Shown: positions 1 to 58,414 of the stretch, one piece after another
Numbering within the stretch: position 1 is the first letter of the stretch
Layout: every line of letters begins with the position of its first letter
Assembly: GCA_038245295.1 (NCBI GenBank)
Contig: JBBRSP010000007.1
Span: forward strand, 128,001-192,000
DNA from: Candidatus Binatia bacterium
Lineage (GTDB): Bacteria > Desulfobacterota > Binatia > HRBIN30
Direction: 5' to 3'
DNA length: 64,000 nucleotides
The notes under the pieces: model-generated
Seen by the model: the letters and a program-made list of their open reading frames with translations, nothing else
Told to the model about the DNA's origin: nothing
Database searches by the model: none
Made by a program: the position numbers and the translations under genes

Positions 1-448
1 GCTTGATGGAGTCGGGCAACGGCGTGCTGGGTAGAACCCACAACAAGCCCGAGATGATGAAGATCACCTGCCCCGTCGTTTGTGCCAGCTTGGCGACAGT
101 CATCGCGGCGATGATCTTGTTGTCCGGCGCCGCGCCTTGCAGGAAACGCAGGCGCACGAACTCGCCGCCGATCTGTGCCGTCGGAGTCAGGTAGTTGACC
201 GAGTCGCCCGCCATGCGCGCCGCCAGCATACGTCGGAATGGAATCACCGGCCGCGGCGGAGCGAACGATGCCCGCCAACCGAGGGTATTGAACGTGTAGG
301 CGAAGATCTCCTGGCCGATGCTCGGGATGATACCCCAACCGACCAAACGCAAGTCGTCGACGACGTTGCTCGCACCAAGCTTGTAGATGAGAAAAACGAG
401 CAAGCCGGCACCACAAGCGAACAGGGCTCGCTCGAGGAACCGACTCAT
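1..448 (-). CDS. Lysylphosphatidylglycerol-synthase TM / HpnL-like flippase-domain membrane protein (3' end beyond window)
   Basis: Absent from the ORF track. Manual translation from ATG 448 gives MSRFLERALFACGAGLLVFLIYKLG...LGWR...AGDSVNYLTPTAQIGGEFVRLRFL..., the N-x-x-x-P-x3-GGE motif of LPG_synthase_TM/HpnL proteins. ATGA overlap with the upstream gene's stop. Confidence 0.82.
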   Translation of the reverse strand, partial: MSRFLERALFACGAGLLVFLIYKLGASNVVDDLRLVGWGIIPSIGQEIFAYTFNTLGWRASFAPPRPVIPFRRMLAARMAGDSVNYLTPTAQIGGEFVRLRFLQGAAPDNKIIAAMTVAKLAQTTGQVIFIISGLLWVLPSTPLPDSIK

Positions 449-1626
449 TCGGCGTCTCGCCAGAGGTAGACCAGCACCAGGAGCAAGGCGAAGCCGTAGG
501 TGCCGAATGCCGCGCCCCAGAAGAACCAGTGCAATTTCCCGAACAGCGCCAATCCGAGCAGGATGTAGGCGAAGTCGCGATTCATCATCGCTTCCATGCC
601 GCCGAGAATTCTCTGCCGCACTCTGCCCTTGCGAGTCTTGGGCGGCCCGCCACTGCTGGCAAAGTCGGGGCGATGCACCAGGAAGAAGTATGTCGCCACA
701 CTCGTGCAGGCGAATCCACCGAGCAAGATAAGAATCAACGTCTTGTACGGTCCGTTCGGATCCTGCCGGTACAGACCGGCTGCCAGGCCGAGGAAGATCG
801 TCACGTGCACGATGTTGTCGGTGGTCACATCGAACTTCTGCCCGAAGGACGACTCGCGATACGTCAGGCGTGCCACTTCGCCATCGCAGCCGTCGATGAT
901 CGTTGTAGCCAGGAACAACAGAGTACCAACGACACCGGACCAGTAGGCGCCGACACCAAGGAACGCCGAGGCGATCAACCCGAGAGATGTGCCGATGATG
1001 GTGATGTGATTCGGTCGCAGCCGCGTATGACGCACGATACGCCGACTGATCGCCAGCGACACCCGTCGATCAAGCCAATGCGCCAGCGGGCCATCACTGA
1101 CAGCACTGTCGCGGCGCATCTTCTCGCACAAGGCCTGCTCGGCCAGCGCCACCGACGCGGTGTCGGTGACCGGGAGATTCACTTCCGACTCCACGGTCAC
1201 GGGCTCGCTGTCCCTCTGATGCAGACGCGCCCACAACCCGCCTAGCGGCTCCGGCGAGCTGTCGGCGGATGGCGCGACAAGCTCCGGCGCATAAACACCG
1301 ACGCTCTGATTGAACACGGCGGGTTTGCCGTTCAGCGCAAAGGTGCGCGCCTGGCGCAGCGTGCCGGTCGTTACCAACCGATCCGGCGGCACGACCGTCA
1401 CCTGGGCGCCATACAGAGGTGGCAGGCTGCGACAGACCTCAATCGAGTGGGTGCGCTCATCACCGCGAAGCAAGGCCCGTACGTCCTCGAAGTTTTCGCC
1501 GGCGGCGACGACGATGCGATCGTAGTCGGCACGAATTGCCGAGAGAACGGCGCGTTGGACCAAGGTGAGTCCCCCGACTCGCAGGAGACTGGTCGATTGA
1601 TCGGCGAGGACAAGCGCGGTGGTCAT
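445..1626 (-). CDS. CDP-alcohol phosphatidyltransferase with degenerate N-terminal nucleotidyltransferase-like domain (IPCT/DIPPS-like architecture)
   Basis: Signature DGCDGEVAR-x6-GQKFDVTTD, RPNHIT helix and TM segments. N-terminus LLRVGGLTLVQRAV resembles NTP-transferases. Start 1626 chosen from the ATGA overlap. Confidence 0.88.
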   Translation of the reverse strand: MTTALVLADQSTSLLRVGGLTLVQRAVLSAIRADYDRIVVAAGENFEDVRALLRGDERTHSIEVCRSLPPLYGAQVTVVPPDRLVTTGTLRQARTFALNGKPAVFNQSVGVYAPELVAPSADSSPEPLGGLWARLHQRDSEPVTVESEVNLPVTDTASVALAEQALCEKMRRDSAVSDGPLAHWLDRRVSLAISRRIVRHTRLRPNHITIIGTSLGLIASAFLGVGAYWSGVVGTLLFLATTIIDGCDGEVARLTYRESSFGQKFDVTTDNIVHVTIFLGLAAGLYRQDPNGPYKTLILILLGGFACTSVATYFFLVHRPDFASSGGPPKTRKGRVRQRILGGMEAMMNRDFAYILLGLALFGKLHWFFWGAAFGTYGFALLLVLVYLWRDAE

Positions 1627-2651
1627 GCAGCCGCCTCCTCGCGCAGGTCCAACGCCAACGAACCGCGGCGCGCCGACGCGTAGGCTTGCGTCAAGAGGCG
1701 CAGGCACATCTCGGCCTCGGCCAGACTGCGGCCGCGGACAGCGGGCGTTTCGATTTCGATCCGGAAGTCATCGACCACGGCACTGAACCAGTCGGGATGA
1801 TGCGAGCTGGCAGTCAGTCCGCTCGCCAACTGTTGTCGCACGACGCCATCGGGCGACTCGATGGTCAGCCGGTCATCCTCGACTTCGATTTGTCCCCGAG
1901 TCCCGATCACTTGCCAACGCGTGCGGCGCCCCGATGCGGCCCAGGTCAGCATGATCTCGCCGCGTACCGTCGGGAACTCGATCGTGCAGTCCACCGTGTC
2001 CTCGACCGCCGCATCGACGAAGCGACGATTCTCGAGTCGCGCGCCGATGCGTTGCGGCTCTTCGGCCGCCAGCCCCATCATCAGGTAGAACGCATGCCAA
2101 CCGTGATCGACGAGGATGCCGCCACCGGCCACTGCCGCATCGATACGCCAGTTCTCGCCGGTCGAGGCCGAGCAGCCGTCACGCCAGGTGTCGAAGCGCA
2201 CCTTTTCGACCTTGCCGATTCGGCCGGCGTCAATCGCCGACTGAATGCTGCGATAGGCCTCGGAACTCTTCCAGTTATGCACGCTGACTAGGGCCACACG
2301 GGCAGCGGTTGCCGCCTGCCGCATGCTCGCAAAGTCGGTCAGTGATGTTGTCAGCGGCTTCTCGCAAAGAATGTGGCAGCCTTTGGCCGCGGCGGCGATG
2401 ACCGCATCGGTATGCCAGGCCGGAGGTGAGGCAACGTCGACGAAATCAAGGCTCTCTCTCGCCAGCAGCTCTTCATGGCTGCCGTAAAGCGCCACACCGG
2501 GGCACAATTGCTCGGCGAGGGCTCGCCGCCGCGGATCGGGATCGGCGACGGCGACGATTTCGAAATCGGAGCGCAGCCGCCATCCCGGCACGTGGCCGTT
2601 GGCGGCGACGTTGCCGAAGCCGATGATTGCGCCTCGCCGGACGCGTCTCAT
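1623..2651 (-). CDS. Gfo/Idh/MocA family NAD(P)-dependent oxidoreductase
   Basis: GAIIGFGNVA Rossmann motif, HILCEKPL, GGGILVDHGWH; ATGA overlaps at both ends. Confidence 0.9.
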   Translation of the reverse strand: MRRVRRGAIIGFGNVAANGHVPGWRLRSDFEIVAVADPDPRRRALAEQLCPGVALYGSHEELLARESLDFVDVASPPAWHTDAVIAAAAKGCHILCEKPLTTSLTDFASMRQAATAARVALVSVHNWKSSEAYRSIQSAIDAGRIGKVEKVRFDTWRDGCSASTGENWRIDAAVAGGGILVDHGWHAFYLMMGLAAEEPQRIGARLENRRFVDAAVEDTVDCTIEFPTVRGEIMLTWAASGRRTRWQVIGTRGQIEVEDDRLTIESPDGVVRQQLASGLTASSHHPDWFSAVVDDFRIEIETPAVRGRSLAEAEMCLRLLTQAYASARRGSLALDLREEAAA

Positions 2652-4003
2652 TGCCGCCAAGCGTTGTCGCGCGCGATCTCGCCGAACACTTCGTCGAGGA
2701 TGGCCACACCGTCGCGCGCTTCGCTTTCGGTGATGATGAGCGGTGGATTGATACGCATGCGCGAGAAGTAACCCATAACGAGAAGGCCGCGGCGCAGCGA
2801 TTCCAGAAAGATCCGTTCGGTGATCTTGGGATCGAGTGGCTCCTTGGTGGCGCGATTCTTGACGAGATCCAAGCCCAGCAATAGGCCGGCGCCACGCACG
2901 TCACCGATGAACTCGTATTTCTCTTGCAGCTTCTTGAGCTCGCGCAGCATGAACGCTCCGACGCGGGCCGAATTCTCGACCAGATCGTCGTCCAGAATCG
3001 TCTCGATCACCGTCAGCGCCGCCGCCGAGGCGAGCGGGTTGCCACCGTAACTCGAGGAGGATGAGCTCGGCTTGGCGAACGGGAACGAGCTGGTGATTTC
3101 GTCGGTGGAAATCAGGCCGGTGATGGGGAAACCGTTGCCGAAGCCTTTGCCGACAGTCATGACGTCGGGCACCGTCTCGGTATGGTCGCAGCCAAACATC
3201 TTGCCGGTACGTCCGAAGCCGGTGATCATCTCATCGGCGATCAACAGCGCTCCGTGGTCCTTGGCAATCGACTGCACGGCCGGCAGAAATTCCTTCGGCG
3301 GCACGACGTTGCCGGCGGTACCTTGGATCGGCTCGATGATGATGGCGGCAATCATCCCGGCGGTGGTGACTCGCAGCTGTTGGCGCATGAAGTCGACACA
3401 CGCCATGCCGCAGCTCGGATACTCCAGCTTGAACGGGCAGCGATAACAATCGGCATAGGGCACGAGATGGGTGCCCGGCATGAGCGGACCCCACTTCTGC
3501 TTCCACTCGTCGCCGATCAACCCCATCACGCCGCTGGTCTTGCCGTGGAAGCCACCCCAGAAGCCGACCACTTCGAATTTCTTCGTGTACGACTTCGCCA
3601 AGCGGATCGCCGCTTCGACGGCCTCGGCGCCGCCGCTGTAAAGCTGCGTGCGCTTGAGGGCACCCGGGGCAAGCTCGGCCATGTGTTTGAGAAGTTGCAG
3701 ACGCGGCTCGCTGGTAAAGCTGCCAACCGCAAGCTTCTCGACTTGCGAGGTCAAGGCTTTGACGAATCGCGGGTGCGAATGGCCAAGGCTGGCGACGGCG
3801 ACGCCGGCGAAGAAGTCGAGATACTCCTTGCCATCGACGTCGGTGAGACGGCAGCCGTGCCCCTCTTTCATCGCCAACTGCGACAACTGCGCGATGCGTT
3901 GGATGCCTGGCGCGATGTAGGCGCTTTCTTCGGAAACCATGGCCAACGACCTCGCACCTGCCACGGCAGCAGGGCGTGATGCTTCCTTGCTTGTTTCTTT
4001 CAC
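2648..4003 (-). CDS. Class III PLP-dependent aminotransferase
   Basis: YLDFFAG, SGGAEAVE, FHGKT, IIEPIQG, LIADEMITGFGRTG, VGKGFGNG (PLP Lys); GTG start overlapping the upstream TGA. Confidence 0.92.
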   Translation of the reverse strand: MKETSKEASRPAAVAGARSLAMVSEESAYIAPGIQRIAQLSQLAMKEGHGCRLTDVDGKEYLDFFAGVAVASLGHSHPRFVKALTSQVEKLAVGSFTSEPRLQLLKHMAELAPGALKRTQLYSGGAEAVEAAIRLAKSYTKKFEVVGFWGGFHGKTSGVMGLIGDEWKQKWGPLMPGTHLVPYADCYRCPFKLEYPSCGMACVDFMRQQLRVTTAGMIAAIIIEPIQGTAGNVVPPKEFLPAVQSIAKDHGALLIADEMITGFGRTGKMFGCDHTETVPDVMTVGKGFGNGFPITGLISTDEITSSFPFAKPSSSSSSYGGNPLASAAALTVIETILDDDLVENSARVGAFMLRELKKLQEKYEFIGDVRGAGLLLGLDLVKNRATKEPLDPKITERIFLESLRRGLLVMGYFSRMRINPPLIITESEARDGVAILDEVFGEIARDNAWRQ

Positions 4004-4818
4004 GATGGTTCCAGCTCTTGGTGTGCGTCTTTGATGTATTCGGCAATCGCCCGCGCCGCATCGGCGCGGCAGCGCGAGTAACTCGGCCAGTCATTCAGAT
4101 CGATCAGCGTCACTTCCCCGTTTGTCCCTACGACGGCATCGCCGCCGTAGATTTCAACATTCAACCGCATCGCGGCGCGTTGCCCGATAGCATCGATCTG
4201 ACGCAAGGTTTCGGGGCTCAGCGTCATGCCGTCGGACGGCAGGGCGTGAAAGTAGCGGCCGCGCACGGCGTAGAACTTCACCACAACACCGGGCACGTGC
4301 TTCTGAATCACTGCCAACGGCACACCGCGATCGGAGAACCGGCGCAGAGCGGCACGAGCTTCTTCGCTGCTGCTCATTTTGGTCACGTCGTCGGCTTGCG
4401 TCGCATGCACATCGCCGCGTTTGACCCAGGCGCCCTCGCGCACCCACTCGGGAACATCGTGCCCATTCCCGGTGGTGACTATGACGCTCTCGGGGAAGGC
4501 GACCCCGCTTCGTGTCAGCAGCGGCACCGTACGGTGACGCTGGCAATTGAGAATGCCCTCGGGTGAGTTGAGAACGCGCACACCGGCGGCTTGCCATTCC
4601 TGCAGCTGCGCCAGCGATTTGTCTCCCTGGGCCATGGTAAAAACGATGGCCCCGGGCCGCGGCGTCGGGAACCAGGTGCACTCGCCGGCGTGCAATTCCA
4701 CATCGTGCCCGGCATCACGCAGGTGTGCCGCCGTCTCCAACAGGATGAGCGTATCGTCCTCGACCTTGCCCGGCGAGAACACCGGTTCGCGTGTCACTCC
4801 CAAAAATCGCTTCATCAT
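4000..4818 (-). CDS. ATP-grasp fold protein with ITPK1-like motifs (putative cyclitol kinase or ligase)
   Basis: VLNSPEGILNC, WVKRGD, VIQKHVPGVVVKFYAV, IYGGDAV and IDLNDWPSY follow the ATP-grasp layout; the terminal motif is D-x-N rather than E-x-N. Confidence 0.72.
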   Translation of the reverse strand: MMKRFLGVTREPVFSPGKVEDDTLILLETAAHLRDAGHDVELHAGECTWFPTPRPGAIVFTMAQGDKSLAQLQEWQAAGVRVLNSPEGILNCQRHRTVPLLTRSGVAFPESVIVTTGNGHDVPEWVREGAWVKRGDVHATQADDVTKMSSSEEARAALRRFSDRGVPLAVIQKHVPGVVVKFYAVRGRYFHALPSDGMTLSPETLRQIDAIGQRAAMRLNVEIYGGDAVVGTNGEVTLIDLNDWPSYSRCRADAARAIAEYIKDAHQELEPS

Positions 4819-5531
4819 TGATACCCGCCGCGGATGAACGCTTCAGCCGTCGCTATGTCCTCGGGCCGATCCACGTCCACCGTCTTTCCCACAGATGCCG
4901 CCGCGACACGATAGCCGCGTGCCAAGAGATGTGCCAGGAACTGCCGCAATGCCGTAAAGCCAGCGGTGCGCGCTGCTTCCACCTCGTCGTAGATGCGGTT
5001 TGCGTACACATAGAAGCCGGCCGTCACCAAGCCACTGCCGCGGGCGGCGTCGCCCAGGGCCGTGACGCGGCCGTCGTCGCTGCACTGCACCCAGAGAGGT
5101 TTCTCGTCGTCGATATAATCTGTCACTGCCAACACGACATCGGCATCGATGCAGCGCGTCGCCGCATCGATGAACCCACGCAGGACTCGCGGCGGCAGGA
5201 TGGCGTCGACTGTAAGCAGAATGAAGCGATCCGCCTGACCATCGAGGCCGAGCAAGGGTCGCAGGGTAAACAAGCTTTCCATGGAGCTCGGTGTCGTGCG
5301 CCGCACGAAGTTGAAGTCGAGACTCGGCCAGGCCGTCCGGCAATGATCCTCAATGCCACGAGACTGTTCATTGACGATACACGCAACATTCGTCAGGCCA
5401 CTGGCTTCGATCGCCGCCAACACGTGATCGATGAGCGGCCGGCCGGCAACTGGAACCAACGGCTTCGGCTGTAGATATCCGCCGGCCTGCAGGCGCTCGC
5501 CGTGCCCTGCCGCGATGATTCCGACATTCAT
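4815..5531 (-). CDS. Nucleotidyltransferase (NTP_transferase family)
   Basis: MNVGIIAAGHGERL...PKPLVPVAGRPLIDH, and DVDRPEDI at the C-terminus; true start is ATG 5531 inside the longer ORF-track frame. Confidence 0.9.
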   Translation of the reverse strand: MNVGIIAAGHGERLQAGGYLQPKPLVPVAGRPLIDHVLAAIEASGLTNVACIVNEQSRGIEDHCRTAWPSLDFNFVRRTTPSSMESLFTLRPLLGLDGQADRFILLTVDAILPPRVLRGFIDAATRCIDADVVLAVTDYIDDEKPLWVQCSDDGRVTALGDAARGSGLVTAGFYVYANRIYDEVEAARTAGFTALRQFLAHLLARGYRVAAASVGKTVDVDRPEDIATAEAFIRGGYQ

Positions 5532-5592: not shown

Positions 5593-6105
5593 CTACGGGT
5601 TTTCGAGATCGGCGAAGCGTTCCTCGAAGACTTGTCGCAGCTGGGCTGGCACCGCGTACTTGCTGGCGCGCAGGATGAAGTTTCCGTAGGTTTTCGCTCC
5701 GTTGCGAAAGGTCCAATCGGAAATGTCGTCGGCGGCCGTCTGCCATTCCTGCCCGGCGCGCAGGTGGCGCGCCGCCGCCGGCGGCTGACTGATACGACCC
5801 TGCACATGATCTCCGTCAACCTTGACCTGGTCGAGCCACACATGAGCCGTGTCGCTACCGATCGGTACGGGGACCTTCACCGCAAAGCCGTGATCCCCGG
5901 CCTGAGGCGCATTTAGCCGGAGCACGAAACCGGCAAAGTTGAGGCGCGCTAACTGCATGGCCTGCGCAAACATCACCGGGTCCTGAAATGGATCGTAGGT
6001 GTCCTCGCTGCGACCAACCAAGCGACGCAGGCGCCGATAGAACAGTGCTGCCGCCACGACGAGCAACGCGACGAATGCCAGGGCGATCGGTGTCATGAGC
6101 TCCAT
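5593..6105 (-). CDS. DUF2314/YegJ-like membrane-anchored protein
   Basis: N-terminal TM helix; FAVKVP..HVWL..VQGRI..ISDW..YGNFILR pattern typical of DUF2314. Confidence 0.7.
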   Translation of the reverse strand: MELMTPIALAFVALLVVAAALFYRRLRRLVGRSEDTYDPFQDPVMFAQAMQLARLNFAGFVLRLNAPQAGDHGFAVKVPVPIGSDTAHVWLDQVKVDGDHVQGRISQPPAAARHLRAGQEWQTAADDISDWTFRNGAKTYGNFILRASKYAVPAQLRQVFEERFADLENP

Positions 6106-6263
6106 GTTGACCCACCGGCGACGATGGCGACTGCCGCAACAGCCAGCCCGAACGGAACAGTCATCACGCCTCCCTTCGCGTTCTCAGGGAAGCGTTCCTG
6201 CCACAACTCCGGGCCGCCTGCCACTGGAACTGGGGGGAAGTCTCCGATGCCGCGAATCGCCGG

Positions 6264-7961
6264 CTAACGTCGCGCCAGCAGGGCATAACGCAGCCCGAGA
6301 GTCGCCCCGAGGGCGTAAAACCAGAACGATAGGACCGGCAGTCCAAGAATAGTATAGGTTCCATAGTTGAGCGCCAGCGTGCCGCAGATGGCGCATGTCC
6401 CGGCCAGTGCGCCCAGCATCGTGCGATGCTGCGTGCGCTGATAACTCTGGCGCAACAGATCCAACTGGGCACTCTCGACGTTGACCACGGTGCGGCCGGC
6501 GCGCAGGTCTTCGAGAATGCCGCGCGCCGTGTCCGGCATAGTGCCCAACGCATCGGCCAGTTCGCGAACCGCGGCATAACCAGACTCCAACAGCCGTCGC
6601 GGCTGGTAACGTTCCGCCACCAAGCGCAGCATGAAAGGCTGCGCCGCGGCGAGCAGGTCGAGATTGGGACGCAGCTGCTTGCCAACGCCCTCCATTGTGA
6701 TCACCGCCTTGAAGGTCATCGTGTAATCCGGCGGCAAGCGCAGACGATGGCGCAACGACAACGTGATCAGGTCCTTGAGAACAACGCTGAACTCGACCTC
6801 AGCCATCGTCTTGCCGGCAAACCAGCGCTGCGCATGTTCGATGATGTCGCGTTCGAAGACGTCGTAGTCGGCGGTCGACTCCTTGCTGTGAATGGCCATC
6901 ACCCAGAACCGACGCGCCACCGCCTCCCAGTCGTGCCGCACGACGGCAACCAGAAGGTCGGTGAGCAGATCGCGCTGGCGCGGGCTCAAGCGGCCGACGA
7001 GACCGACATCGATGAAACACACCGTGCCGTCGTCGCGGATCAACACGTTTCCAGGATGGACGTCGCCGTGAAAGAACCCGTCGCCGTAGATCATCTGCAA
7101 CACGGCTTCCAAGGCGGTGTGCAGCACAGCATCGACATCGATTCGCGCCTCGTCGATGTTGGTGATCTTGGCACCGACGATGCGCTCCATGGTGAGGACA
7201 CGGGCGCTCGACAGGCCGCGCCGCGGTTCCGGGAAGCGCACACGGGGATTGTCGGCGAAGTTCAGCCGGAAGCGCTCGAGGTTCTCCAACTCGTTGTGAA
7301 AGTCGATCTCCTTGAGGATCGCCTTTTCGAACTCGGCCACCATGCCGGCGGGCGAAAACATGCGCGTCTCAGGGAAATTGGTTTCGAGTACTCGCGCCAC
7401 CAGCGCCATAATCTCAAGATCAGCGGCGATCTGGGGCTCGAGGTTGGGGCGCTGGATCTTCACCACGACATCGGCGCCGTCCTCGTGGAGCCGCGCCGTA
7501 TGTACCTGGGCGATCGACGCCGTCGCCAGGGGTTCACGGTTGAAGTCGCGGAACAGCGTATCGACGTCGGCGCCCAGCTCGCTTTGCACCATGGCGGCGA
7601 CTTCTTCGAAGGGCAGCGACGGCACGTCATTTTGCAATGTCTGAAGCTCTTGAATCAGCGAGGGCGGGAACAGATCAGGCCGGGTCGACACCATCTGTCC
7701 AAGCTTGATGAAGGTAGGGCCGAGGTCTTGCAGGGTGTGGACGATACGGCGTTCGAGAGGAACCGATTCGACCTCGCGGCTGACCCGCCAGTCGCGTAGC
7801 GTCGTGGCAACCCAATTGTCCTGCACCTCGAGGGCCTGCACGACGGCCCCAAAGCCGTGGCGCACCAAGACAGCAACGATCTGCCGCAGACGACCGACAT
7901 CGCGCAGCACGGCTTGGCCGGTGCGCACATTGTCATAGGCGCGGCGCAGAGAAGTCGGCAT
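6264..7961 (-). CDS. ABC1/UbiB/AarF family atypical kinase
   Basis: LGPTFIKLGQ, ASIAQVH, VVKIQRP, FFHGDVHPGN, IDVG; two C-terminal TM helices. Confidence 0.93.
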   Translation of the reverse strand: MPTSLRRAYDNVRTGQAVLRDVGRLRQIVAVLVRHGFGAVVQALEVQDNWVATTLRDWRVSREVESVPLERRIVHTLQDLGPTFIKLGQMVSTRPDLFPPSLIQELQTLQNDVPSLPFEEVAAMVQSELGADVDTLFRDFNREPLATASIAQVHTARLHEDGADVVVKIQRPNLEPQIAADLEIMALVARVLETNFPETRMFSPAGMVAEFEKAILKEIDFHNELENLERFRLNFADNPRVRFPEPRRGLSSARVLTMERIVGAKITNIDEARIDVDAVLHTALEAVLQMIYGDGFFHGDVHPGNVLIRDDGTVCFIDVGLVGRLSPRQRDLLTDLLVAVVRHDWEAVARRFWVMAIHSKESTADYDVFERDIIEHAQRWFAGKTMAEVEFSVVLKDLITLSLRHRLRLPPDYTMTFKAVITMEGVGKQLRPNLDLLAAAQPFMLRLVAERYQPRRLLESGYAAVRELADALGTMPDTARGILEDLRAGRTVVNVESAQLDLLRQSYQRTQHRTMLGALAGTCAICGTLALNYGTYTILGLPVLSFWFYALGATLGLRYALLARR

Positions 7962-8181
7962 GCAGAGGACAAGCTAGCGCACAACGCTGGGCGAAGACAA
8001 AGCCGCACCGCGGGCGCGCGCGTTCCACGCCCGTGATTCATCCTAACCGCAGAGTTTACCGAACCGGCATCGCTCTTAACCGGCCCTCCTCCTAGGATAC
8101 GTTTCCATCGAGGCTGCTCGAAAACGACACCGCCGTACTGCGGCACAACCGACCTTCCGGGTCGTAAGGAGACACAGGACC

Positions 8182-9003
8182 ATGAGCCAACCATACAGGT
8201 ATCACACGCTGATCATCGCCATGGCTTGCCTCAGCGCCGCAAGGTCAGGCAGCGCCGCGATGCTGCGATGTCCATCAGACTCCGTAAGGGTTGGCAACGT
8301 CTGTATCGACAAGTACGAGGCGAGCGTCTGGGACATTCCGCCGTCGAACACCGCGCTCATCCGGCGCGTCCAGCTGGGCAGAGTCACAGTCGCGGAGCTG
8401 ACCAACGGCGGCGCCACGGAGCTGAGCCCCAGCCAGTCGTGCAGCCCGGCATTCCCGGCGACGTTCGGCGCCAACGGGAACTGGACCAAACCCGTCTATG
8501 CGGTGTCCATACCGGGCGTGCGTCCGGCCGGGTGTGTCACGTGGCTCCAGGCAGAACAGGCGTGTGCACTCGCCGGAAAGCGACTGCTGACGAACCAGGA
8601 ATGGCAACGCGCCGCCGCCGGAACGCCGGATCCTGGCGCCGACGACGGTGAAACGGACTGCAACGTCGGTGGTCTCAATCGGCCAGTCGAGGCCGGCTCG
8701 CGATCGAAGTGTGTGTCGAGCTGGGGCACGTTCGACATGGTGGGGAATGTCGAGGAGTGGGTCGCGGACTGGGTGGCGCAGACGACGGCGTGTCCGGGCT
8801 GGGGCTCGTTCAGCGACGACGTCATGTGCCTTTCGGGTGCGAATACGACTGGGACCGGTCCTGGAGCCTTGGTTCGCGGCGGTTCCTACACCGACTTCAC
8901 GGCAGCTGGAGTCTTCGCCATCGACGCCGGCCCGGCACGCGGAACAATCGGCAACACGCCGGTCGCGGCCCGCCCGAGTCTTGGTTTCCGCTGCGCGCGC
9001 TAG
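8182..9003 (+). CDS. Secreted FGE-sulfatase/SUMF1 (C-type lectin fold) domain protein
   Basis: Signal-like N-terminus; CIDKYEAS, GKRLLTNQEW, FDMVGNVEEW, RGGSY, GFRCAR; AAGGAG RBS. Confidence 0.85.
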   Translation: MSQPYRYHTLIIAMACLSAARSGSAAMLRCPSDSVRVGNVCIDKYEASVWDIPPSNTALIRRVQLGRVTVAELTNGGATELSPSQSCSPAFPATFGANGNWTKPVYAVSIPGVRPAGCVTWLQAEQACALAGKRLLTNQEWQRAAAGTPDPGADDGETDCNVGGLNRPVEAGSRSKCVSSWGTFDMVGNVEEWVADWVAQTTACPGWGSFSDDVMCLSGANTTGTGPGALVRGGSYTDFTAAGVFAIDAGPARGTIGNTPVAARPSLGFRCAR

Positions 9004-9087
9004 TCGGTTCTGACGGCAACAACGCTCGCTTGGCTTTGCGCCGACGCTCAGAAGTTGTAGCGTGCCGGCGCAACACCGAGGGAGCGT

Positions 9088-10767
9088 ATGACGATCGTAA
9101 AAGACGACGAACTACCATTGGCACGTGCCTATCGCTGGGAGCGTGAGCGACCGAACCAAGTATTCTTGACGCAGCCGAAGAACGGCGTCGCCCGGGATTG
9201 GACCTGGGCGCAGGCGATGGACGAGGCGCGACGGCAGGCGGCTTACCTCAAGGCGCAGAATTTCCCGCCGGGGTCGCGCATCGTCATCATCGCCAAGAAC
9301 TGCGCCTGGTGGATCATGGCCGACCTCGCCATCTGGATGGCGGGGCACGTCAGCGTCCCCGTCTATCCGTCGCTGGCAGGCAGCACGGTGCGACAGATCC
9401 TCGACCATGCCGAGGCAAGCCTGGCGTATATCGGTGAGCTCGACGACTGGAAGAGTATGCAGTCCGGCATTCCCGCCGAGCTGCCGTGTATCGGCATGCC
9501 GAACGCGCCGGAAGCGATCAAAACCCGTTGGGACGACATCCTGGCGAAAACGCCGCCCATGAGTGGCGAGACGCGGCGCAATGCCGACGATCTCGCGACC
9601 ATCATCTACACCTCGGGAACAACGGGAATACCGAAGGGCGTCATGCACGCCTTCACCAGCTTCGCCATCGCCGGGCAATTGTTTGCCAACCTCATCAAGG
9701 CAACCCCCGATGAGCGCATTCTTTCCTACTTGCCATTGGCGCACGTTGCGGAGCGCGCGCTGATCGAATCGCCGTCCATTTACGCCGGCACCCATATCTA
9801 CTTCACGGAAGGGTTGAGTACGTTCCTCGTCGATCTGCGGCGGGCACGGCCAACCGCATTCTTTTCGGTGCCGCGACTGTGGGTCAAGTTCCAGCACGGC
9901 GTATTCGAAAAGCAGCCGCCAAAGAGGCTGAACTTCTTGATGCGCCTGCCGATTGTGGGTCGCTTGGTCAAGAAGAAGATCCTGACCCAACTCGGCCTCG
10001 AGACCGTGCGGTTCGCCGGCTGTGGCGCGGCACCGATGCCGCCGGAGTTGCTCCAATGGTATCGCCGCCTCGGCCTCGAGCTGCTCGAAGGCTACGGGAT
10101 GAGCGAGAACTTCGGCTTGTCCCACAGCTCGCGGCCAGGCCAGGCGCGTGTGGGATACGTTGGGCAACCATGGGACGGCATGCAGCATAAGTTGTCTCCC
10201 GAGGGGGAAGTCCTGGTCCGCTGCCCGACCAACATGATGGGATACTTCAAGGAGCCGGAGAAAACGCGCGAGGTGTTTACCGACGACGGGTTTCTGCGCA
10301 CCGGTGATCTCGGACAGATCGACGAAGCCGGACGGCTACGCATCGTCGGGCGTGCCAAGGAGCAGTTCAAGACGAGCAAGGGCAAGTATGTCGCGCCGTC
10401 GCCTATCGAGAACAAATTATCGGCGCACCCGCGTGTCGAGGCCGTCTGCGTCACGGGTCCGGGCTACCCGCAGCCGTTCGCCATCGTCGTCTTATCGAAG
10501 AGCGAACCTGGCGACGGTTTGCCGCCGGCAGCCGAACGAGAAGAGCTCAGCCGGTCGTTGACTGCCCATCTCAAGTCGGTGAACGCCGACCTCGATCCGC
10601 ACGAAGAGCTCGATTTCATCGCTGTCGTCGGCCAGCACTGGAGCGTCGAATCCGGATTCATCACACCGACGCTGAAGATCAAACGCCCTGTGGTCGAAGG
10701 TTTCTACGAGCGCCATTTCGAAGAGTGGGCACGCCAACGTAAGCCGGTGGTGTGGCACGAGGGCTAG
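9088..10767 (+). CDS. Long-chain fatty-acid--CoA ligase (AMP-binding)
   Basis: YTSGTTGIPKG, EGYGMSE, RTGDLG, GRAKEQFKTSKGKYVAP, TPTLKIKR. Confidence 0.92.
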   Translation: MTIVKDDELPLARAYRWERERPNQVFLTQPKNGVARDWTWAQAMDEARRQAAYLKAQNFPPGSRIVIIAKNCAWWIMADLAIWMAGHVSVPVYPSLAGSTVRQILDHAEASLAYIGELDDWKSMQSGIPAELPCIGMPNAPEAIKTRWDDILAKTPPMSGETRRNADDLATIIYTSGTTGIPKGVMHAFTSFAIAGQLFANLIKATPDERILSYLPLAHVAERALIESPSIYAGTHIYFTEGLSTFLVDLRRARPTAFFSVPRLWVKFQHGVFEKQPPKRLNFLMRLPIVGRLVKKKILTQLGLETVRFAGCGAAPMPPELLQWYRRLGLELLEGYGMSENFGLSHSSRPGQARVGYVGQPWDGMQHKLSPEGEVLVRCPTNMMGYFKEPEKTREVFTDDGFLRTGDLGQIDEAGRLRIVGRAKEQFKTSKGKYVAPSPIENKLSAHPRVEAVCVTGPGYPQPFAIVVLSKSEPGDGLPPAAEREELSRSLTAHLKSVNADLDPHEELDFIAVVGQHWSVESGFITPTLKIKRPVVEGFYERHFEEWARQRKPVVWHEG

Positions 10768-10777
10768 CGGGCGCGGG

Positions 10778-11452
10778 TTATGGACGACCTAGATCATCCA
10801 GGCGTCGCAGGACCAGGTCGACCAGCGACGGATCTGGACACGACAGATCGCGCTCGCCGGTGAACCAGGCCGTCTTCAGCCCGGCCCCACGCGCGCCGCG
10901 TACATCCTTGTCGAAGGAATCTCCCACGTAGAGCACTTCGTGGGCGGCACAGCCCATTTGTTCGACGGCCATCTGGAAGATCGCCGGATCCGGCTTGCTG
11001 ACACCGACACAGTTGGAATCGATGATGCTGCTCAACATCGGACTGAGCCCGGCTTCGTCGAGCAATCGGTCGACGTTGCCGTAGAAGTTCGAAATGACTC
11101 CCAGTGTGTAGCGTTGGCGCAAGCGTTTCAGGACCTGACGGCTGGCTGCCAAAGAGGCCCGCGCTTGATTGACGAAGTCGGTGATTACGCGCAGGCGCAC
11201 CTGCTCGTCGTCCAGCTTCAACCGTTCGAGCTGGCGATCGACATGGAACTCGATCAACGGCTGCAGCTCGAGGTCGGCGACGGCCATATCGCGGTAGGCC
11301 GATTGCGTCGCGAAGTCGAAAGCATCGCGGATCGTCGCCCAGGAGTAGTCGCAGCCGGCGGCACGGTAGAGCTCGGCGAAACGTTCGAGCCAGTGAATGC
11401 CGGGAGCGTCGAGAGTACCGCCGAAATCGAAACAGATGCCGCGCACTTCCAT
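10778..11452 (-). CDS. HAD family phosphatase
   Basis: FDFGGTLD (motif I variant), ISNFYG, KPDPAIF, VGDSFDKD. Confidence 0.88.
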   Translation of the reverse strand: MEVRGICFDFGGTLDAPGIHWLERFAELYRAAGCDYSWATIRDAFDFATQSAYRDMAVADLELQPLIEFHVDRQLERLKLDDEQVRLRVITDFVNQARASLAASRQVLKRLRQRYTLGVISNFYGNVDRLLDEAGLSPMLSSIIDSNCVGVSKPDPAIFQMAVEQMGCAAHEVLYVGDSFDKDVRGARGAGLKTAWFTGERDLSCPDPSLVDLVLRRLDDLGRP

Positions 11453-11550: not shown

Positions 11551-13245
11551 ATGGCCAGATTGAATGAGTTCTCGGCGGCGACGCGACAGCGCAACCTGGA
11601 AGCTCTGTCGCGCGACACGTTTGATCTTCTGATCATCGGCGGCGGAATCACGGGTGCGGGCATCGCGCGCGACGCGACACTACGCGGCCTCAGGGTTGCG
11701 CTGGTCGAACAACGCGATTTTGCTTCCGGCACCAGCAGTCGTTCCTCGAAGCTAGTGCACGGCGGATTGCGCTATCTGGCGCAGGGCGACGTCGGCCTGG
11801 TGATGGAAGCCGCGAACGAACGTCGGACGCTGCGCCGCATCGCGCCCTATCTGGCGCGACCCCTGCAAATGCTCGTGCCGGTGCACGGCCGCTCGGGCTA
11901 CATGACGATCAGTGCCGGGTTATTCACCTACGACAAAATGGCGCGCGTCGAAAAGGAGCATCGCAACCAGATGCTCGGACGCGACGATACTCTTGCCAAA
12001 GAGCCACTGCTGCGCCGCGACAAAGTGTACGGCGCCGGGTTCTACTACGAGTGCCTGACGGACGACGCACGTCTGGTCATCGAGAACATCAAGACCGCCG
12101 CCGCTCTCGGTGGCATCGCCGCCAACTACACCGAGGTTGTCTCCTTCCGCACCGAAGGTGGACGCTTGAGCGGCGCGGTGGTTCGCGACCGCCTCGGTGG
12201 TGGCGAATTCGAAGTGCGCGCCCATGTGACGGTCAATGCTGCCGGCCCGTGGGTCGACGCCGTGCGTCTACTGCAGGGCGAGAGCGAAAAGCCGCGGCTG
12301 CATCTGACCAAGGGAATTCATCTGGTCGTCCCGAAGGAGCGGCTGCCGGTGCAGCACTGCGTCGTAATGACGACACCCGACAAACGGTCGATCTTCGTCG
12401 TGCCGCGCGGCGACATCGTCTACCTCGGCACCACCGACACCAATTACGAGGGCCGACTCGACGAGCCGGCAATCACCGTCGAGGACGGCGAGTACCTGCT
12501 GCAGACCACCAACGCGACATTCGACATCGAGCCGTTACGCCTCAGCGATACCGTCGGCGCCTGGGCTGGGCTGCGCCCCCTGTTGCATCAGGAAGGAAAG
12601 AAGCCTTCCGAAATCTCGCGACGCGACGAGATCATGGTGGGGCCAAGCGGGCTGCTGTCGATCGCCGGCGGCAAACTCACGGCCTATCGCCGTATGGCTG
12701 AACGAATCGTCGAGAACGTCGCAGAGATTCTCACCGAACGCGGCCACTCGGTACGACCGGACCCGGGGAACAGCGCGACCGAACTGTTGAGTGGTGGTGC
12801 GACGGGTGAAGACGTTGAGGCGTTCGCTGCACGACTGAAGAGTAAGTGGTCGCGCCTGCCTGCCGACATCGTCGAACGCCTGGTCACGGTCTACGGCAGC
12901 AATGCCGAACGGATGGTCGAGGGCATGGCCACCGACCCGCAATTGGCACTTCGGTGCGCCCCGGAGTCGGCCGTCACGCAGAGCGAGGTCGCCTACGCCG
13001 TGCGCGAAGAGATGGTCATGACCCTTGTCGACTTCCTCGAACGCCGCTCGCGTCTCTTCTTGTGGGATCGCGCCAACGGGCTGGGCGTGGCGAGCCAGGT
13101 GGCACACCTCATGGCACCGATGCTGGGTTGGGATACGACGCGGGTAGACCGCCAAATACGCGAGTATGGTGAGCATGTTGCTGCGGTGAAACACTTCGTG
13201 TCGCCAGAATCAGACATCGTCGAGAAAAAGGTGGCACATGCCTGA
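11551..13245 (+). CDS. glpD: FAD-dependent glycerol-3-phosphate dehydrogenase/oxidase
   Basis: IIGGGITGAG, DFASGTSSRSSKLVHGGLRYL, DDARL, GTTDT, WAGLRPL, GGKLTAYRRMAE. Confidence 0.92.
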   Translation: MARLNEFSAATRQRNLEALSRDTFDLLIIGGGITGAGIARDATLRGLRVALVEQRDFASGTSSRSSKLVHGGLRYLAQGDVGLVMEAANERRTLRRIAPYLARPLQMLVPVHGRSGYMTISAGLFTYDKMARVEKEHRNQMLGRDDTLAKEPLLRRDKVYGAGFYYECLTDDARLVIENIKTAAALGGIAANYTEVVSFRTEGGRLSGAVVRDRLGGGEFEVRAHVTVNAAGPWVDAVRLLQGESEKPRLHLTKGIHLVVPKERLPVQHCVVMTTPDKRSIFVVPRGDIVYLGTTDTNYEGRLDEPAITVEDGEYLLQTTNATFDIEPLRLSDTVGAWAGLRPLLHQEGKKPSEISRRDEIMVGPSGLLSIAGGKLTAYRRMAERIVENVAEILTERGHSVRPDPGNSATELLSGGATGEDVEAFAARLKSKWSRLPADIVERLVTVYGSNAERMVEGMATDPQLALRCAPESAVTQSEVAYAVREEMVMTLVDFLERRSRLFLWDRANGLGVASQVAHLMAPMLGWDTTRVDRQIREYGEHVAAVKHFVSPESDIVEKKVAHA

Positions 13246-14650
13246 CAACACTTCAGCACAGCATCGACAAGCACTGGCCACGCGTCTCGGCGCGGAACGG
13301 GTGAGTTGGGACGACGGAACACTCGCCGAACACAGCCGCGATTACTGGTCGCTCTCGGCCCTGCGGCGCATGCAGGGTCGACAAGACAATCGACCCTTGT
13401 GTGTCGTCACACCAGAAAACACCGCACAGGTCAGCACGCTTCTCGAATATGCCAACACCCAACGCATCCCGGTCGTTCCGTTCGGCGCCGGCTCCGGCGT
13501 CTGCGGCGCCGTGTTACCGGATAGCCGCAGCATCGTCGTCGACCTGCGCGGCATGAACCGCATCCTCGAGCTCAACGAGAACTCTCTCTACGTGCGCGTC
13601 CAGGCGGGCATGATGGGCGGTGTCTTCGAAGCGGAGCTCAACAAAGCGAAGTACTCGGCGCGCCACTTTCCGCAATCGATCGACGTCTCGACCGTCGGCG
13701 GCTGGGTGGCCACACGGGCCGCCGGCCAATACTCGACGCGCTACGGCAACATCGAAGACATTCTGCTCGGCGTTGAAGGAGTGCTGCCCGATGGGCGCAT
13801 CGTGAGCACACGACTGGGCGTTCGCTCCGCCGCCGGCCCCGATCTGCGGCATGTGTTCCTCGGCGCCGAAGGCACGATGGGTATCATCACGGAGGTTACC
13901 CTGCGCCTCGTACCGCTACCGGAGACGACGGTTGGCTACTCCTTCAGCTTCGCGTCGATGGACGCCGGCCTCGAGGCGATTCGCAAGATCATGCGCGACG
14001 GGTGGCGGCCACCTGTGGTGCGGCTCTACGACGCCATCGAAGCGGCGCGTTTGTTTCCCGATGTCAGCGACACGACCAACGCGTTGCTGTTGCTGCTGTC
14101 CGAGGGACCGCGCGGTATGACCGACGCCGAAGTAGCCGGCTGCAGCGCGATCTGCACCGAAAATGGCGGCACGTCGACGGGCGCCGGACCCGTGGAGCGC
14201 TGGAGCCACGAGCGCAATCACGTGCCGGGTTTTGACAAGTTCCTCGAACGCGGCCTGGTTCTCGATACGATCGAGGTCGCCAGCACATGGGATCGTGTCG
14301 GCGCCATGTATCGCGAAGTCGTAGCGGCGATGCAGAACGTGCCCGGCACCCTGATAGCCTCGGGCCACAGCTCGCACAGCTACGCCCAGGGAACGAATAT
14401 CTACTTCACGTTCGTCGCCAAGCCGGAAGATCCGGCGGGCGGTGAGGCGACCTACCTCGCCTGCTGGGCGGCAGCGATGGAGGCGACGTTGCGATGCGGC
14501 GGTACGATCGCGCATCACCATGGTATCGGCCGCTTGCGCCGCGACTGGATGAAAGAGGAGCTCGGGTCGAGCCTCGAGATGTTGCGCGCCCTCAAGCGTG
14601 CGATCGACCCGAACGGCATCATGAACCCCGGCGTTCTCATCCCCGACTGA
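13238..14650 (+). CDS. FAD-binding oxidoreductase, alkyl-DHAP synthase (AGPS)/YgcU-like
   Basis: PFGAGSGV, HFPQSIDVSTVGGWVATRAAGQYSTRYG, GHSSHSY, AHHHGIG, DPNGIMNPG; overlaps the glpD stop. Confidence 0.85.
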   Translation: MPDNTSAQHRQALATRLGAERVSWDDGTLAEHSRDYWSLSALRRMQGRQDNRPLCVVTPENTAQVSTLLEYANTQRIPVVPFGAGSGVCGAVLPDSRSIVVDLRGMNRILELNENSLYVRVQAGMMGGVFEAELNKAKYSARHFPQSIDVSTVGGWVATRAAGQYSTRYGNIEDILLGVEGVLPDGRIVSTRLGVRSAAGPDLRHVFLGAEGTMGIITEVTLRLVPLPETTVGYSFSFASMDAGLEAIRKIMRDGWRPPVVRLYDAIEAARLFPDVSDTTNALLLLLSEGPRGMTDAEVAGCSAICTENGGTSTGAGPVERWSHERNHVPGFDKFLERGLVLDTIEVASTWDRVGAMYREVVAAMQNVPGTLIASGHSSHSYAQGTNIYFTFVAKPEDPAGGEATYLACWAAAMEATLRCGGTIAHHHGIGRLRRDWMKEELGSSLEMLRALKRAIDPNGIMNPGVLIPD

Positions 14651-14665
14651 CCGGAACGGACAGCC

Positions 14666-16126
14666 ATGAAGCCGTACGTTCTCGCCATCGACGAAGGCAC
14701 GACGGGAGTCCGCGCCCACGTATTCGACAGCGCCGGCACCTTGTGTGGTGCTGCCTATCAAGAGCTCAGCGCCAGCTATCCGCACCCAGGCTGGATCGAA
14801 CAGGATCCCCTCGCCATCTGGCGCACCGCCCAGGCGGTGACGGAGCGCGCCTTGGCAAAGGCGAAGTTACGGGCCAGCGACATCGACGCGATCGGCATCT
14901 GTAACCAGCGCGCCAGCGTGCTGGTCTGGGATCGGCGCACGTCGGAGCCGGTCTACCCAGCCATCGTATGGCAAGACACACGCACGGCGGCGCGCATCCC
15001 GCAGTTGCTGGAGCAGGGTTTCTTCACCAACAGCCTGGCGTCGGCGACCAAACTCGAATGGATCTTGCAGAACATTCCCGACGGCGTGTCACGCGCCGCG
15101 GCTGGCGACCTGTGCTTCGGGACGGTCGATAGTTGGCTGGCGTGGAAGCTTAGCGGTGGCAAACTGCACGTGACCGACTACTCCAACGCCTCGTGCACAA
15201 CGCTGTTCGACGTGTTGCAGGCGATCTGGGACGTCAACGCGCTGCAGCTCCTCGACATCCCCGCAGCGATCTTGCCGCGCGCCGCGCAATCGTCGGAGAT
15301 CTACGGCATGTCGTCGGCAGAGGCGTTCGGCGCTGAAGTGCCGATTGCGGGTATGGCGGGCGACCAGCAAGCCGCCATGTTCGGCGAGATGTGTGTCGAT
15401 CCCGGCAGCGTGAAGATCACCTATGGCACCTCCGGCATGGCCGACATTCACACGGGTGAATACCCGGTGATGTCGCTCCGCGGAGCCTACCCGCTCATTC
15501 TGTGGGGGATCGACGGCCAGCGTTCGTTCTGCCTGGAAGGTACGACGGTCACCGCGGGCGCCGCGGTGCAATGGCTGCGCGATGGGCTGGGCGTATTGCG
15601 CGATCTGGACGAGAGCGGTCCACTGGCTGCTTCCGTGCCCGACAACGGCGGCGTGTGGGCGGTTCCGGCGTTCCAGGGGCTCGGCACACCACACATGGAC
15701 CCGGGAGCCCGCGCCCTGATCGGCGGCTTGTCGCGCGGCAGCACGCGGGCGCACGTCGTACGAGCGGTTCTCGAGGGTATTGCCTACCGCAGTCGCGAAG
15801 TTCTCACCACGCTGCTCGAAGACTCCGGCAACGCGCCGCCAGCGCGCTTGCGTGTTGACGGTGGGGCGGCGGCCAACGACTTTCTGTTGCAGCATCTCTC
15901 GAACGTGCTCGGCTTACCGGTCGAGCGCCCGCGATCGGTGCAAGCCTCGGCACTCGGTGCCGCCTACCTCGCGGGGTTGGCCGTCGGCGTGTGGAAATCC
16001 GTCGACGAGCTGCGGCACACGTATCGCTCCGGCAAAGTGTTCGAACCTCAATGGGATGCCGATCGGCGCGACACGGCTTTCGCGCTTTGGCAACGCAACG
16101 TCGCGGCGGCGCGACAACCTTCCTGA
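14666..16126 (+). CDS. glpK: Glycerol kinase-like FGGY carbohydrate kinase
   Basis: LAIDEGTTG, GWIEQDP, NQR, WQDTRT, GDQQAA, KITYGT, RVDGG. Confidence 0.85.
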   Translation: MKPYVLAIDEGTTGVRAHVFDSAGTLCGAAYQELSASYPHPGWIEQDPLAIWRTAQAVTERALAKAKLRASDIDAIGICNQRASVLVWDRRTSEPVYPAIVWQDTRTAARIPQLLEQGFFTNSLASATKLEWILQNIPDGVSRAAAGDLCFGTVDSWLAWKLSGGKLHVTDYSNASCTTLFDVLQAIWDVNALQLLDIPAAILPRAAQSSEIYGMSSAEAFGAEVPIAGMAGDQQAAMFGEMCVDPGSVKITYGTSGMADIHTGEYPVMSLRGAYPLILWGIDGQRSFCLEGTTVTAGAAVQWLRDGLGVLRDLDESGPLAASVPDNGGVWAVPAFQGLGTPHMDPGARALIGGLSRGSTRAHVVRAVLEGIAYRSREVLTTLLEDSGNAPPARLRVDGGAAANDFLLQHLSNVLGLPVERPRSVQASALGAAYLAGLAVGVWKSVDELRHTYRSGKVFEPQWDADRRDTAFALWQRNVAAARQPS

Positions 16127-16265
16127 AGCAAACCGTCATGCAGGGGCATCGAGCCCTGCAACACCCTGCGGCCACCGTGCAAACCCGTGCAGGGTGACGT
16201 CGACCTGTGAGCAGACCCAGAACATCGACGATCGACGGAATATGTCTTGCTGGTATGATCCTTTG

Positions 16266-18362: not shown

Positions 18363-18455
18363 TTGGAAGGGGGTTGTGGGTCGGGCGGCCGCCGACCGAT
18401 GAACGCACCAGATTTTCCAAGCGAGCCAAGGGGTCTCTTTTACGCCGCACAAACG

Positions 18456-18485
18456 ACAACGGGCGCCCCGAAGGGCACCCGTTGT
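18456..18485 (-). terminator. Intrinsic terminator-like hairpin between convergent genes
   Basis: Minus strand ACAACGGGTGCCC-TTCG-GGGCGCCCGTTGT followed by CGTTT, just downstream of the DUF4215 gene stop. Confidence 0.7.
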
Positions 18486-18511
18486 TGGTTTGAACTATTT
18501 GAAGCGACTGA

Positions 18512-20101: not shown

Positions 20102-20297
20102 GAGCACTCCCTCCAACACCAAACAAAGCGCGAATCCACGTCACGCCCGGCCCCGATCATCCCGCGATGCCGCAACCGATAACAACTCGGTTTGCGTCTT
20201 GAGCCCGTCCCCTGCGCTATAATGAGCCCAACGGTCGCAAACCTACTCGGCCGAATAGTCCCGGCCCGATGGCGAGTCAATCAACAATCCCCACTGA

Positions 20298-58331: not shown

Positions 58332-58414
58332 GAGAATATTTCCCCTCGAGTGCGGCGGACACTAACCGAGCACTCAGGGTCAATCAAGACAAGAAAGGTC
58401 TAGATTGAACCCGT

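Follow-up and report, generated by a model that had tools for sequence, protein, structure and literature searches.

Does the ATP-grasp protein encoded beside a nucleotidyltransferase gene in a Candidatus Binatia genome act as a kinase or as a ligase, and what is its substrate? The question arises from a stretch of 64,000 nucleotides (assembly GCA_038245295.1, contig JBBRSP010000007.1, positions 128,001 to 192,000; the window), in which an open frame on the minus strand (4818 to 4000) encodes a protein of 272 residues that combines catalytic residues of inositol-tetrakisphosphate 1-kinases (ITPKs) with a fold closest to that of RimK-like ligases. The original prediction, made from the sequence alone, had proposed a kinase of inositol or another cyclitol with signatures of ITPK1. 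The available evidence indicates that the protein is very probably a kinase of some kind. With moderate confidence, it can be assigned as a kinase of a free cyclitol that would phosphorylate inosamine in the form present in the window (Gln at position 64) and inositol in relatives with Arg at this position, before CDP-activation and transfer to a lipid.

The frame is a real gene, and its motifs are not due to chance, because Lys181 and Asn242 are invariant in all 132 diverse members of a wide alignment and Asp227 and Asp240 are each present in 131 of them. All three motifs named in the original prediction lie at their stated places: VIQKHVPGVVVKFYAV at residues 170–185 (nucleotides 4311–4264), YGGDAV at residues 224–229, and IDLNDWPSY at residues 239–247. 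The protein belongs to an unnamed family. As a single sequence, it found no match in Pfam or in the PDB, and the RimK model (TIGR00768) reached just 23.7 of the 143.4 bits of its cut-off, covering only residues 58–117. The ITPK family (PF05770) matched weakly in 21 of 132 relatives (best E 0.0022), with 0 of 1 genome over the cut-off. In the ESM Atlas, unnamed clusters of the family itself rank first, and the named neighbors are a mixture of RimK and PF05770. A literature search, which left most subscription journals outside its coverage, found no description of the family. Relatives are numerous (870 among 5992 candidates; 1312 cluster representatives at E ≤ 0.001 after clustering at 50%). 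The closest named ones are Candidatus Binatia, and 16 of the 21 genomes of the relatives search, including the source genome, carry the gene; a scan of viral contigs for the family motif gave 0 matches.

Residues were compared because the fold does not fix the chemistry in the ATP-grasp superfamily. The controls, taken from databases, were 30 RimK-like proteins and four eukaryotic ITPKs above the PF05770 cut-off, whose D-x-N motif was preselected by the search pattern and is shown independently by the ITPKs in the PDB. In all 32 sampled members and all 69 further copies, Lys181 and Asp240 take the place of the Arg of the ligases and the Glu of their E-x-N motif; the RimK-like controls have Arg in 25/30 and Glu in 29/30 cases, and the eukaryotic ITPKs have Lys in 4/4. 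Together with Asp227 and Asn242, these residues align with the catalytic Lys of ITPKs (on the first strand of the C-terminal domain), the catalytic Asp, and the D-x-N motif. We take K188 and D288 of AtITPK1 to correspond to the columns of Lys181 and the catalytic Asp in this family. The AtITPK1 mutants K188A and D288A are reported to be inactive (PMC7115839). By contrast, Arg is common to amide-forming ATP-grasps (PMC4431377), and R189 of RimK binds glutamate (PMC10092738).

The original prediction had regarded D-x-N as the mark of a kinase, but the motif alone is not proof, because CDC123 has it outside the kinases (D246xN248; PMC4431377); Lys in place of the ligase Arg is the better marker. 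The linker Arg (R94) is kept in 130/132 members and the ligase Arg is replaced by Lys181, which sets the family apart from the R2K/CDC123 clade. A likeness to the Q-x-F-x-x-H hinge of ITPKs had also been proposed but did not hold up: Gln172 is kept, His174 of the QKHV stretch aligns with the Phe, and the ITPK His is without a counterpart. The three hinge residues are reported to bind adenine in human ITPK1 (PMC11927698) and are uninformative on the substrate for this reason.

The gene context was compared over 80 loci that were kept out of 591 matching stretches and whose neighbors were scored with profiles built from these same loci; short contigs depress the counts. The neighbors comprise a nucleotidyltransferase (76 loci), a HAD phosphatase (74), a class III aminotransferase (70), a CDP-alcohol phosphotransferase (65), a Gfo/Idh dehydrogenase (58), an LPG_synthase_TM protein (52), and MIPS (25). 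Of 11 long relatives scanned, nine are fused to the nucleotidyltransferase, to HAD plus nucleotidyltransferase, or to the CDP-alcohol transferase, and eight of the 11 contain a nucleotidyltransferase joined to the ATP-grasp domain. Among the 62 loci with enough flank, the dehydrogenase and the aminotransferase are either both present (54) or both absent (8). Ignavibacteria loci (L024, L027, L030, and others) carry an MlaE-MlaF-MlaD lipid transporter between the nucleotidyltransferase and the ATP-grasp gene (17–19 of 80 loci), with Omp85-type genes close by.

The same association is found among Bacteroidales. Of 201 genomes, 27 have a strong ATP-grasp match, and all of these are among the 28 that have the nucleotidyltransferase of the cluster; none has the ATP-grasp gene alone. 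In 20 wide loci from these 27 genomes, the order is nucleotidyltransferase (20 loci), ATP-grasp, CDP-alcohol phosphotransferase (20), LPG_synthase_TM protein (optional; 8), HAD (19), and MIPS (17), and amine genes are absent. An amine partner is not needed, because an aminotransferase ortholog was found in 0 of 26 tested Bacteroidales genomes with both nucleotidyltransferase and ATP-grasp genes. The ATP-grasp gene is a core gene of a cluster of nucleotidyltransferase, CDP-alcohol phosphotransferase, HAD, and MIPS. Muribaculaceae proteins and unnamed ones made up most matches of a profile search for the Bacteroidales members. One Bacteroidales locus (L373:587-1894) combines a nucleotidyltransferase/CDP-alcohol transferase fusion with an LPG_synthase_TM gene and a short HAD-like frame; no ATP-grasp gene was found there, and the fusion may use the MIPS product directly.

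A single residue offers a hint to the substrate. All 71 loci that have the aminotransferase show Gln at position 64, and 35 of the 36 that lack it show Arg (106/107 overall); the next best column makes six errors. The exception (L068) has an aminotransferase ortholog elsewhere in its genome (56% identity), and a search of five Arg-form genomes for such an ortholog gave no match above 38%. New genomes were then sampled, and 79 genomes were scored genome-wide for the ortholog. The out-of-sample count covers 50 new genomes; it omits G473, which is flagged as unpublished, and three first-round duplicates (G695, G897, G985) and scores G912 as positive from a copy cut by the contig end. A Gln or Glu copy is present in 43 of the 44 new genomes with the ortholog, and three of the six genomes without it have only Arg copies. 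Five Ignavibacteria carry tandem Arg and Gln copies ahead of the aminotransferase, and one other carries two Arg copies; in one myxobacterium, an Arg copy lies with HAD and nucleotidyltransferase genes and a Glu copy lies beside the amine genes. The cultured species Desulfoferrobacter suflitae (L050) carries a Gln form. None of the columns of the nucleotidyltransferase, the phosphotransferase, the HAD, the LPG_synthase_TM protein, or MIPS tracks the amine genes as well (0.91 vs ≤0.76). The loop formed by residues 61–66 aligns with RimK R64–S68, which bind substrate (PMC10092738). Arg64 would repel an ammonium group and Gln or Glu64 would accept it, and the pattern suggests that the enzyme acts on whatever the amine genes produce where these exist and on the parent compound where they do not. 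Gln64 forms in genomes without an aminotransferase ortholog are found at L358, L359, and L360, the first of which adjoins a class I/II pyridoxal phosphate (PLP) enzyme and a diacylglycerol-kinase-like gene.

These observations are consistent with a pathway in which MIPS, encoded in the source genome by a single gene on another contig, would provide inositol monophosphate, from which the HAD phosphatase would release free myo-inositol. The dehydrogenase and the aminotransferase would convert it to inosamine, and the ATP-grasp kinase would transfer phosphate from ATP directly to a ring hydroxyl in an Mg-dependent reaction, as in ITPKs. The nucleotidyltransferase would then form CDP-inosamine, the CDP-alcohol phosphotransferase would pass phospho-inosamine to a lipid alcohol, and the resulting lipid would be flipped by the LPG-synthase-like protein. 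A cluster that strips the phosphate should require a kinase before CDP-activation, and the presence of both phosphatase and kinase in a cluster with MIPS would be explained by the need of amination for a free ring. Arg64 forms of Bacteroidales and other lineages without amine genes would use plain inositol; in their clusters, phosphatase and kinase could move the phosphate or allow the use of imported inositol. The neighbor had been called a cytidylyltransferase; it is an NTP_transf_3 protein, and its presumed preference for CTP is deduced from the CDP-alcohol phosphotransferase downstream.

Streptidine and streptomycin synthesis includes an inosamine kinase step catalyzed by scyllo-inosamine 4-kinase. 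The order of the first four steps of the pathway predicted here matches the route to inosamine proposed for hygromycin A, in which MIPS, phosphatase, Gfo/Idh dehydrogenase, and aminotransferase are reported as Hyg18, Hyg25, Hyg17, and Hyg8 (PMC10949010). The likeness is one of enzyme families: aminocyclitol routes make antibiotics, whereas the genes in the window go together with CDP-activation and a membrane phosphotransferase. In the CDP-inositol pathway (IPCT with DIPPS or BEPIS; Archaeoglobus, Rhodothermus), the head group is likewise CDP-activated and then transferred, but the MIPS product is used directly, without phosphatase or kinase; two proteins of the window reach 45.7 and 63.8 bits with the IPCT/DIPPS model NF041135 (cut-off 580 bits). 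Known kinases of free myo-inositol (TK2285 and plant MIK) are reported to belong to the ribokinase family (PMC6900528); the predicted reaction is the same, but the fold is unrelated.

Several results weigh against a free-cyclitol kinase. The predicted structure (predicted local distance difference test, pLDDT, 97) has a three-domain ATP-grasp fold, and its best matches as a whole are RimK (Z 21.8, root-mean-square deviation [rmsd] 3.2, 252 aligned residues), LysX (Z 21.6), and ArgX (Z 21.5), followed by ITPK1 from maize (Z 19.8, rmsd 3.1, 246 aligned) and human (Z 18.3, rmsd 3.1, 250 aligned) and by PPIP5K2 (Z 18.0). The structural comparison with RimK, proposed as a check of the original prediction, thus went in favor of the ligases, which surpass the ITPKs also for the C-terminal domain alone (Z 8–9.7 vs about 6). 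A profile-profile comparison gave E 7.6e-21 for RimK-like proteins vs 6.1e-9 for eukaryotic ITPKs (a profile of four sequences). In a quick tree of all columns, the split between RimK and the rest is supported (SH-aLRT 95). When the diagnostic columns are removed, the tree loses resolution: support for this split falls to 57/58, and the grouping of the family with ITPKs receives 64/62 with a long-branch warning; for this reason, a common ancestor with ITPKs is not claimed as shown. Outside the fold, no close characterized cyclitol homolog of the aminotransferase and the dehydrogenase was found in the PDB, and recombinant ITPK1s are reported not to phosphorylate free inositol (PMC6900528). In one genome (G071), a nucleotidyltransferase/CDP-alcohol transferase fusion lies near a contig start and no kinase was found. 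All five kinase-bearing genomes checked have MIPS, so that none of them is an example of obligatory salvage. One new genome with the aminotransferase has only Arg copies, and three of the six without it have Gln. The Arg state at position 64 changed eight times on the tree; the pattern is strong but its formal statistics are weak, because only three independent pairs are available (sign test p 0.25).

The fold results raise the possibility of a RimK-like ligase that joins a carboxylate (an amino acid or acyl group) to the cyclitol as a head-group decoration, with an amide bond to inosamine in the Gln form and an ester bond to inositol in the Arg form. The correlation of residue 64 with the amine would also fit the pocket of a nucleophile, D-x-N is found in non-kinases such as CDC123, and the ligases are the nearest matches in overall fold and size and are similar in the region preceding the ATP-grasp domains. 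In a search of the PDB with a profile of the whole family, the ligase PsnB ranks first (9e-9), with AtITPK4 (1e-7), RimK (1e-6), and ITPK1 (7e-5) behind; with a profile of the C-terminal domain, however, the first six matches are all ITPKs (AtITPK4 E 4e-7, human 1e-4) and RimK appears only from E 0.024. Matches to the RimK hidden Markov model span only residues ~55–125. The amide-ligase Arg is replaced by Lys in every member and the Glu of E-x-N is missing, as are the Gly-rich small loop and the large loop (RxNxxxGG) of RimK, instead of which the protein has a KRGDVHA..DV loop. If the protein were a ligase, no phosphorylation would follow the HAD reaction in the pathway, and the one structure considered for an inositol lipid of a Bacteroidales species is reported as plain 1-P-myo-inositol (PMC4587543). 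We consider a ligase quite unlikely. The protein is ITPK-like in its catalytic residues without being a member of the ITPKs, and RimK-like in its fold without the features of a ligase.

Within the kinase assignment, the pocket bears on the substrate. The Lys of the HKLTD motif (K63), His171, and the Arg of the RPS motif (R216), which are invariant in ITPKs, align with Met62, Asp144, and no residue, respectively. These missing basic residues presumably serve to bind phosphate. Four extra Asp (Asp22, Asp136, Asp144, Asp243) are conserved in the pocket, and together with the lost basic residues they suit a neutral or cationic substrate; inositol phosphates, among the substrates originally envisaged, are probably not used. 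What stands of the original prediction is a kinase acting on a cyclitol, as suggested by gene context, fusions, the set of Lys and D-x-N residues, and the switch at residue 64, but not membership in ITPK1. The protein shares with ITPKs the three-domain fold and the catalytic Lys, Asp, and D-x-N but remains below the PF05770 cut-off, has no match to the pre-domain PF17927, and lacks the hinge, several basic residues, and the insert that follows the KVY strand in ITPKs. The family has motifs of its own (R-x4-SPG, KRGDxHA, GGD, NDWPS), and its predicted substrate would be unphosphorylated, which ITPK1 refuses, and would feed a CDP pathway rather than inositol polyphosphates.

The alternative that the enzyme phosphorylates a monophosphate of inositol or inosamine, in the manner of ITPK1 on Ins3P, also appears quite unlikely. 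It would form a bisphosphate from which the HAD later strips the first phosphate, so that phosphate moves round the ring, and Arg64 would bind phosphate. ITPK1 is reported to use Ins1P and Ins3P (PMC6900528), MIPS yields a monophosphate directly, Arg10 aligns with an N-terminal Lys of ITPKs, and Arg64 occurs in the forms without amine genes; against this stand the loss of the three basic residues, the conserved Asp residues of the pocket, and the Gln/Glu forms, which have no basic residue at position 64.

The Bacteroidales loci appear, by protein family, gene order, and locus-tag spacing, to match a putative alternative inositol-lipid cluster of Bacteroides vulgatus and Prevotella (Heaver et al. 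2022, PMC9246714). It is reported to comprise a nucleotidyltransferase, a CDP-alcohol phosphotransferase, a HAD, a lysyl-PG-synthase-like gene, and MIPS, in the order shared by the Bacteroidales relatives, and the spacing of BVU_RS13095, BVU_RS13105, and BVU_RS13115 leaves slots for the ATP-grasp and LPG_synthase_TM genes. P. distasonis and P. chinchillae are listed with the alternative cluster without MIPS. Passages of the text and supplement of that study mention no ATP-grasp or kinase gene. Heaver et al. assign the HAD to the step from PI-DAG to PI-DHC, whereas it is predicted here to be an inositol-phosphate phosphatase; in addition, the kinase is placed between nucleotidyltransferase and phosphotransferase, and the version in the window adds the dehydrogenase and the aminotransferase. 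One locus (L120, G022:C8:11300-24200) carries inositol-lipid genes of the BT_1523/BT_1522 type inside the alternative cluster, i.e., two routes in one locus.

The nature of the product leaves room for a further alternative, namely, that the kinase acts on another polyol or an amino sugar, or that the product is a soluble phosphodiester solute (compare DIP synthesis) or a hopanoid conjugate and not a glycero- or sphingolipid. MIPS lies outside the operon of the window, the phosphotransferase most closely resembles AF2299 and IPCT/DIPPS, and the PDB matches of the dehydrogenase are mixed sugar enzymes. Hopanoid genes flank the Binatia loci: HpnK is encoded just outside the left edge of the window (G000:C7:125477-126346) and HpnJ within it (56886–58361), both above cut-off, and a squalene-hopene cyclase is encoded elsewhere in the genome (contig C23). 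We nevertheless regard this alternative as unlikely, with MIPS present at a quarter of all loci (25/80) and in most wide Bacteroidales loci (17/20), and a flippase-like gene in 52/80 loci. B. vulgatus and P. veroralis, species with the matching cluster, are reported to make an inositol sphingolipid (PMC9246714, PMC10056535), and the Verrucomicrobia loci have sphingolipid-type genes on their flanks. In nine of these loci (L020, L021, L028, L029, L032, L035, L049, L065, L079), an SPT-like enzyme, a GNAT protein, and a KdsR-like reductase suggest a sphingolipid island, and a second pair of nucleotidyltransferase and CDP-alcohol transferase genes lies alongside.

ATP-grasp inositol kinases have been described from eukaryotes and Asgard archaea and reportedly need a phosphorylated substrate (PMC8024741, PMC6900528). 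If the assignment to free cyclitols is correct, a bacterial kinase family would widen ATP-grasp chemistry. The alternative inositol-lipid pathway of gut Bacteroidales, itself unconfirmed, would be revised, with the HAD as inositol-phosphate phosphatase and the kinase as an overlooked step. Tannerella forsythia, which lacks MIPS, is reported to form 1-P-myo-inositol ceramides from imported inositol, and the kinase was sought there without finding a candidate (PMC4587543); the present family would offer one. For soil and water bacteria, an amino-inositol phospholipid would be predicted, of which a literature search found no report. The joint scenario is tentative, plausible rather than probable: widespread, ITPK-like kinases of free cyclitols in bacteria would form a sister family to the ITPK1 lineage and switch between inositol and inosamine by one residue. 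In Binatia, Ignavibacteria, Verrucomicrobia, Myxococcota, and Syntrophobacteria, the Gln/Glu forms would build a phospho-inosamine membrane lipid not yet described, and in gut and oral Bacteroidales the Arg forms would be the inositol kinase that is missing there.

In the window, six genes from the nucleotidyltransferase to the LPG_synthase_TM/HpnL-like gene are joined by 4-base overlaps of start and stop codons, including those on both sides of the ATP-grasp gene; no promoter or terminator match was found upstream. The last gene is cut by the window start and encodes 333 residues in the genome.

Table 1. Coordinates of the predicted cyclitol-lipid genes and key sites in the window
Feature	Position	Strand	Basis
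ATP-grasp protein, 272 aa, predicted free-cyclitol (inosamine) kinase	4000..4818	-	Fold, residues, context
Gln64 codon; substrate-loop residue, Gln/Glu with aminotransferase pair, Arg without	4627..4629	-	
Lys181 codon; place of amide-ligase Arg (RimK R189) and ITPK catalytic Lys	4276..4278	-	Alignment, PMC4431377, PMC10092738
Metal-binding stretch YGGD...D-x-N-D-W-P-S (D227, D240, N242)	4078..4149	-	
Nucleotidyltransferase (NTP_transf_3), predicted CDP-inosamine maker, nucleotide choice inferred	4815..5531	-	
Class III PLP aminotransferase, predicted inosose aminotransferase	2648..4003	-	51-78% identity over 70 loci
Gfo/Idh/MocA dehydrogenase, predicted myo-inositol dehydrogenase	1623..2651	-	Top NCBIfam match IolG, below cut-off
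CDP-alcohol phosphotransferase, catalytic motif intact, most like AF2299 and IPCT/DIPPS	445..1626	-	
LPG_synthase_TM/HpnL-like membrane protein, predicted flippase	1..448	-	HpnL 173.7 bits, cut-off 195.65
HAD phosphatase, predicted inositol-monophosphate phosphatase	10778..11452	-	Best genome match to cluster HAD profile

The HAD gene abuts the nucleotidyltransferase gene in most related loci, whereas four genes lie between them in the window (5593–10767; DUF2314, ABC1/UbiB kinase, FGE-sulfatase-like, and AMP-binding). Genes for a GlpD-like FAD oxidase, an FAD-linked oxidase, and a glycerol-kinase-like protein (11551–16126) diverge from the HAD gene; a GlpD-like gene adjoins the cluster in 8 of 80 loci (Pfam check via a homolog), and in 17 of 80 the cluster is followed by HpnK. 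The SPT-like gene of the window scores as BioF. Further on (15780–20122), the window encodes a large protein rich in CxxCH motifs and another protein in which Cys-rich CDDGN units are repeated.

Among profile neighbors of the family, the nearest (E 3.7e-29) is another large, unnamed group of bacterial ATP-grasp proteins, which carries Lys and D-x-N-x-F-P and is found at metagenome loci in the range L134–L262 (e.g., L141, L143, L213, L136, L156). Many of its members exceed the PF05770 cut-off, the genes often occur in tandem pairs, and some members are fused to an APH-type kinase or to the C-terminal domain of mannitol dehydrogenase; they are possibly further small-molecule kinases.

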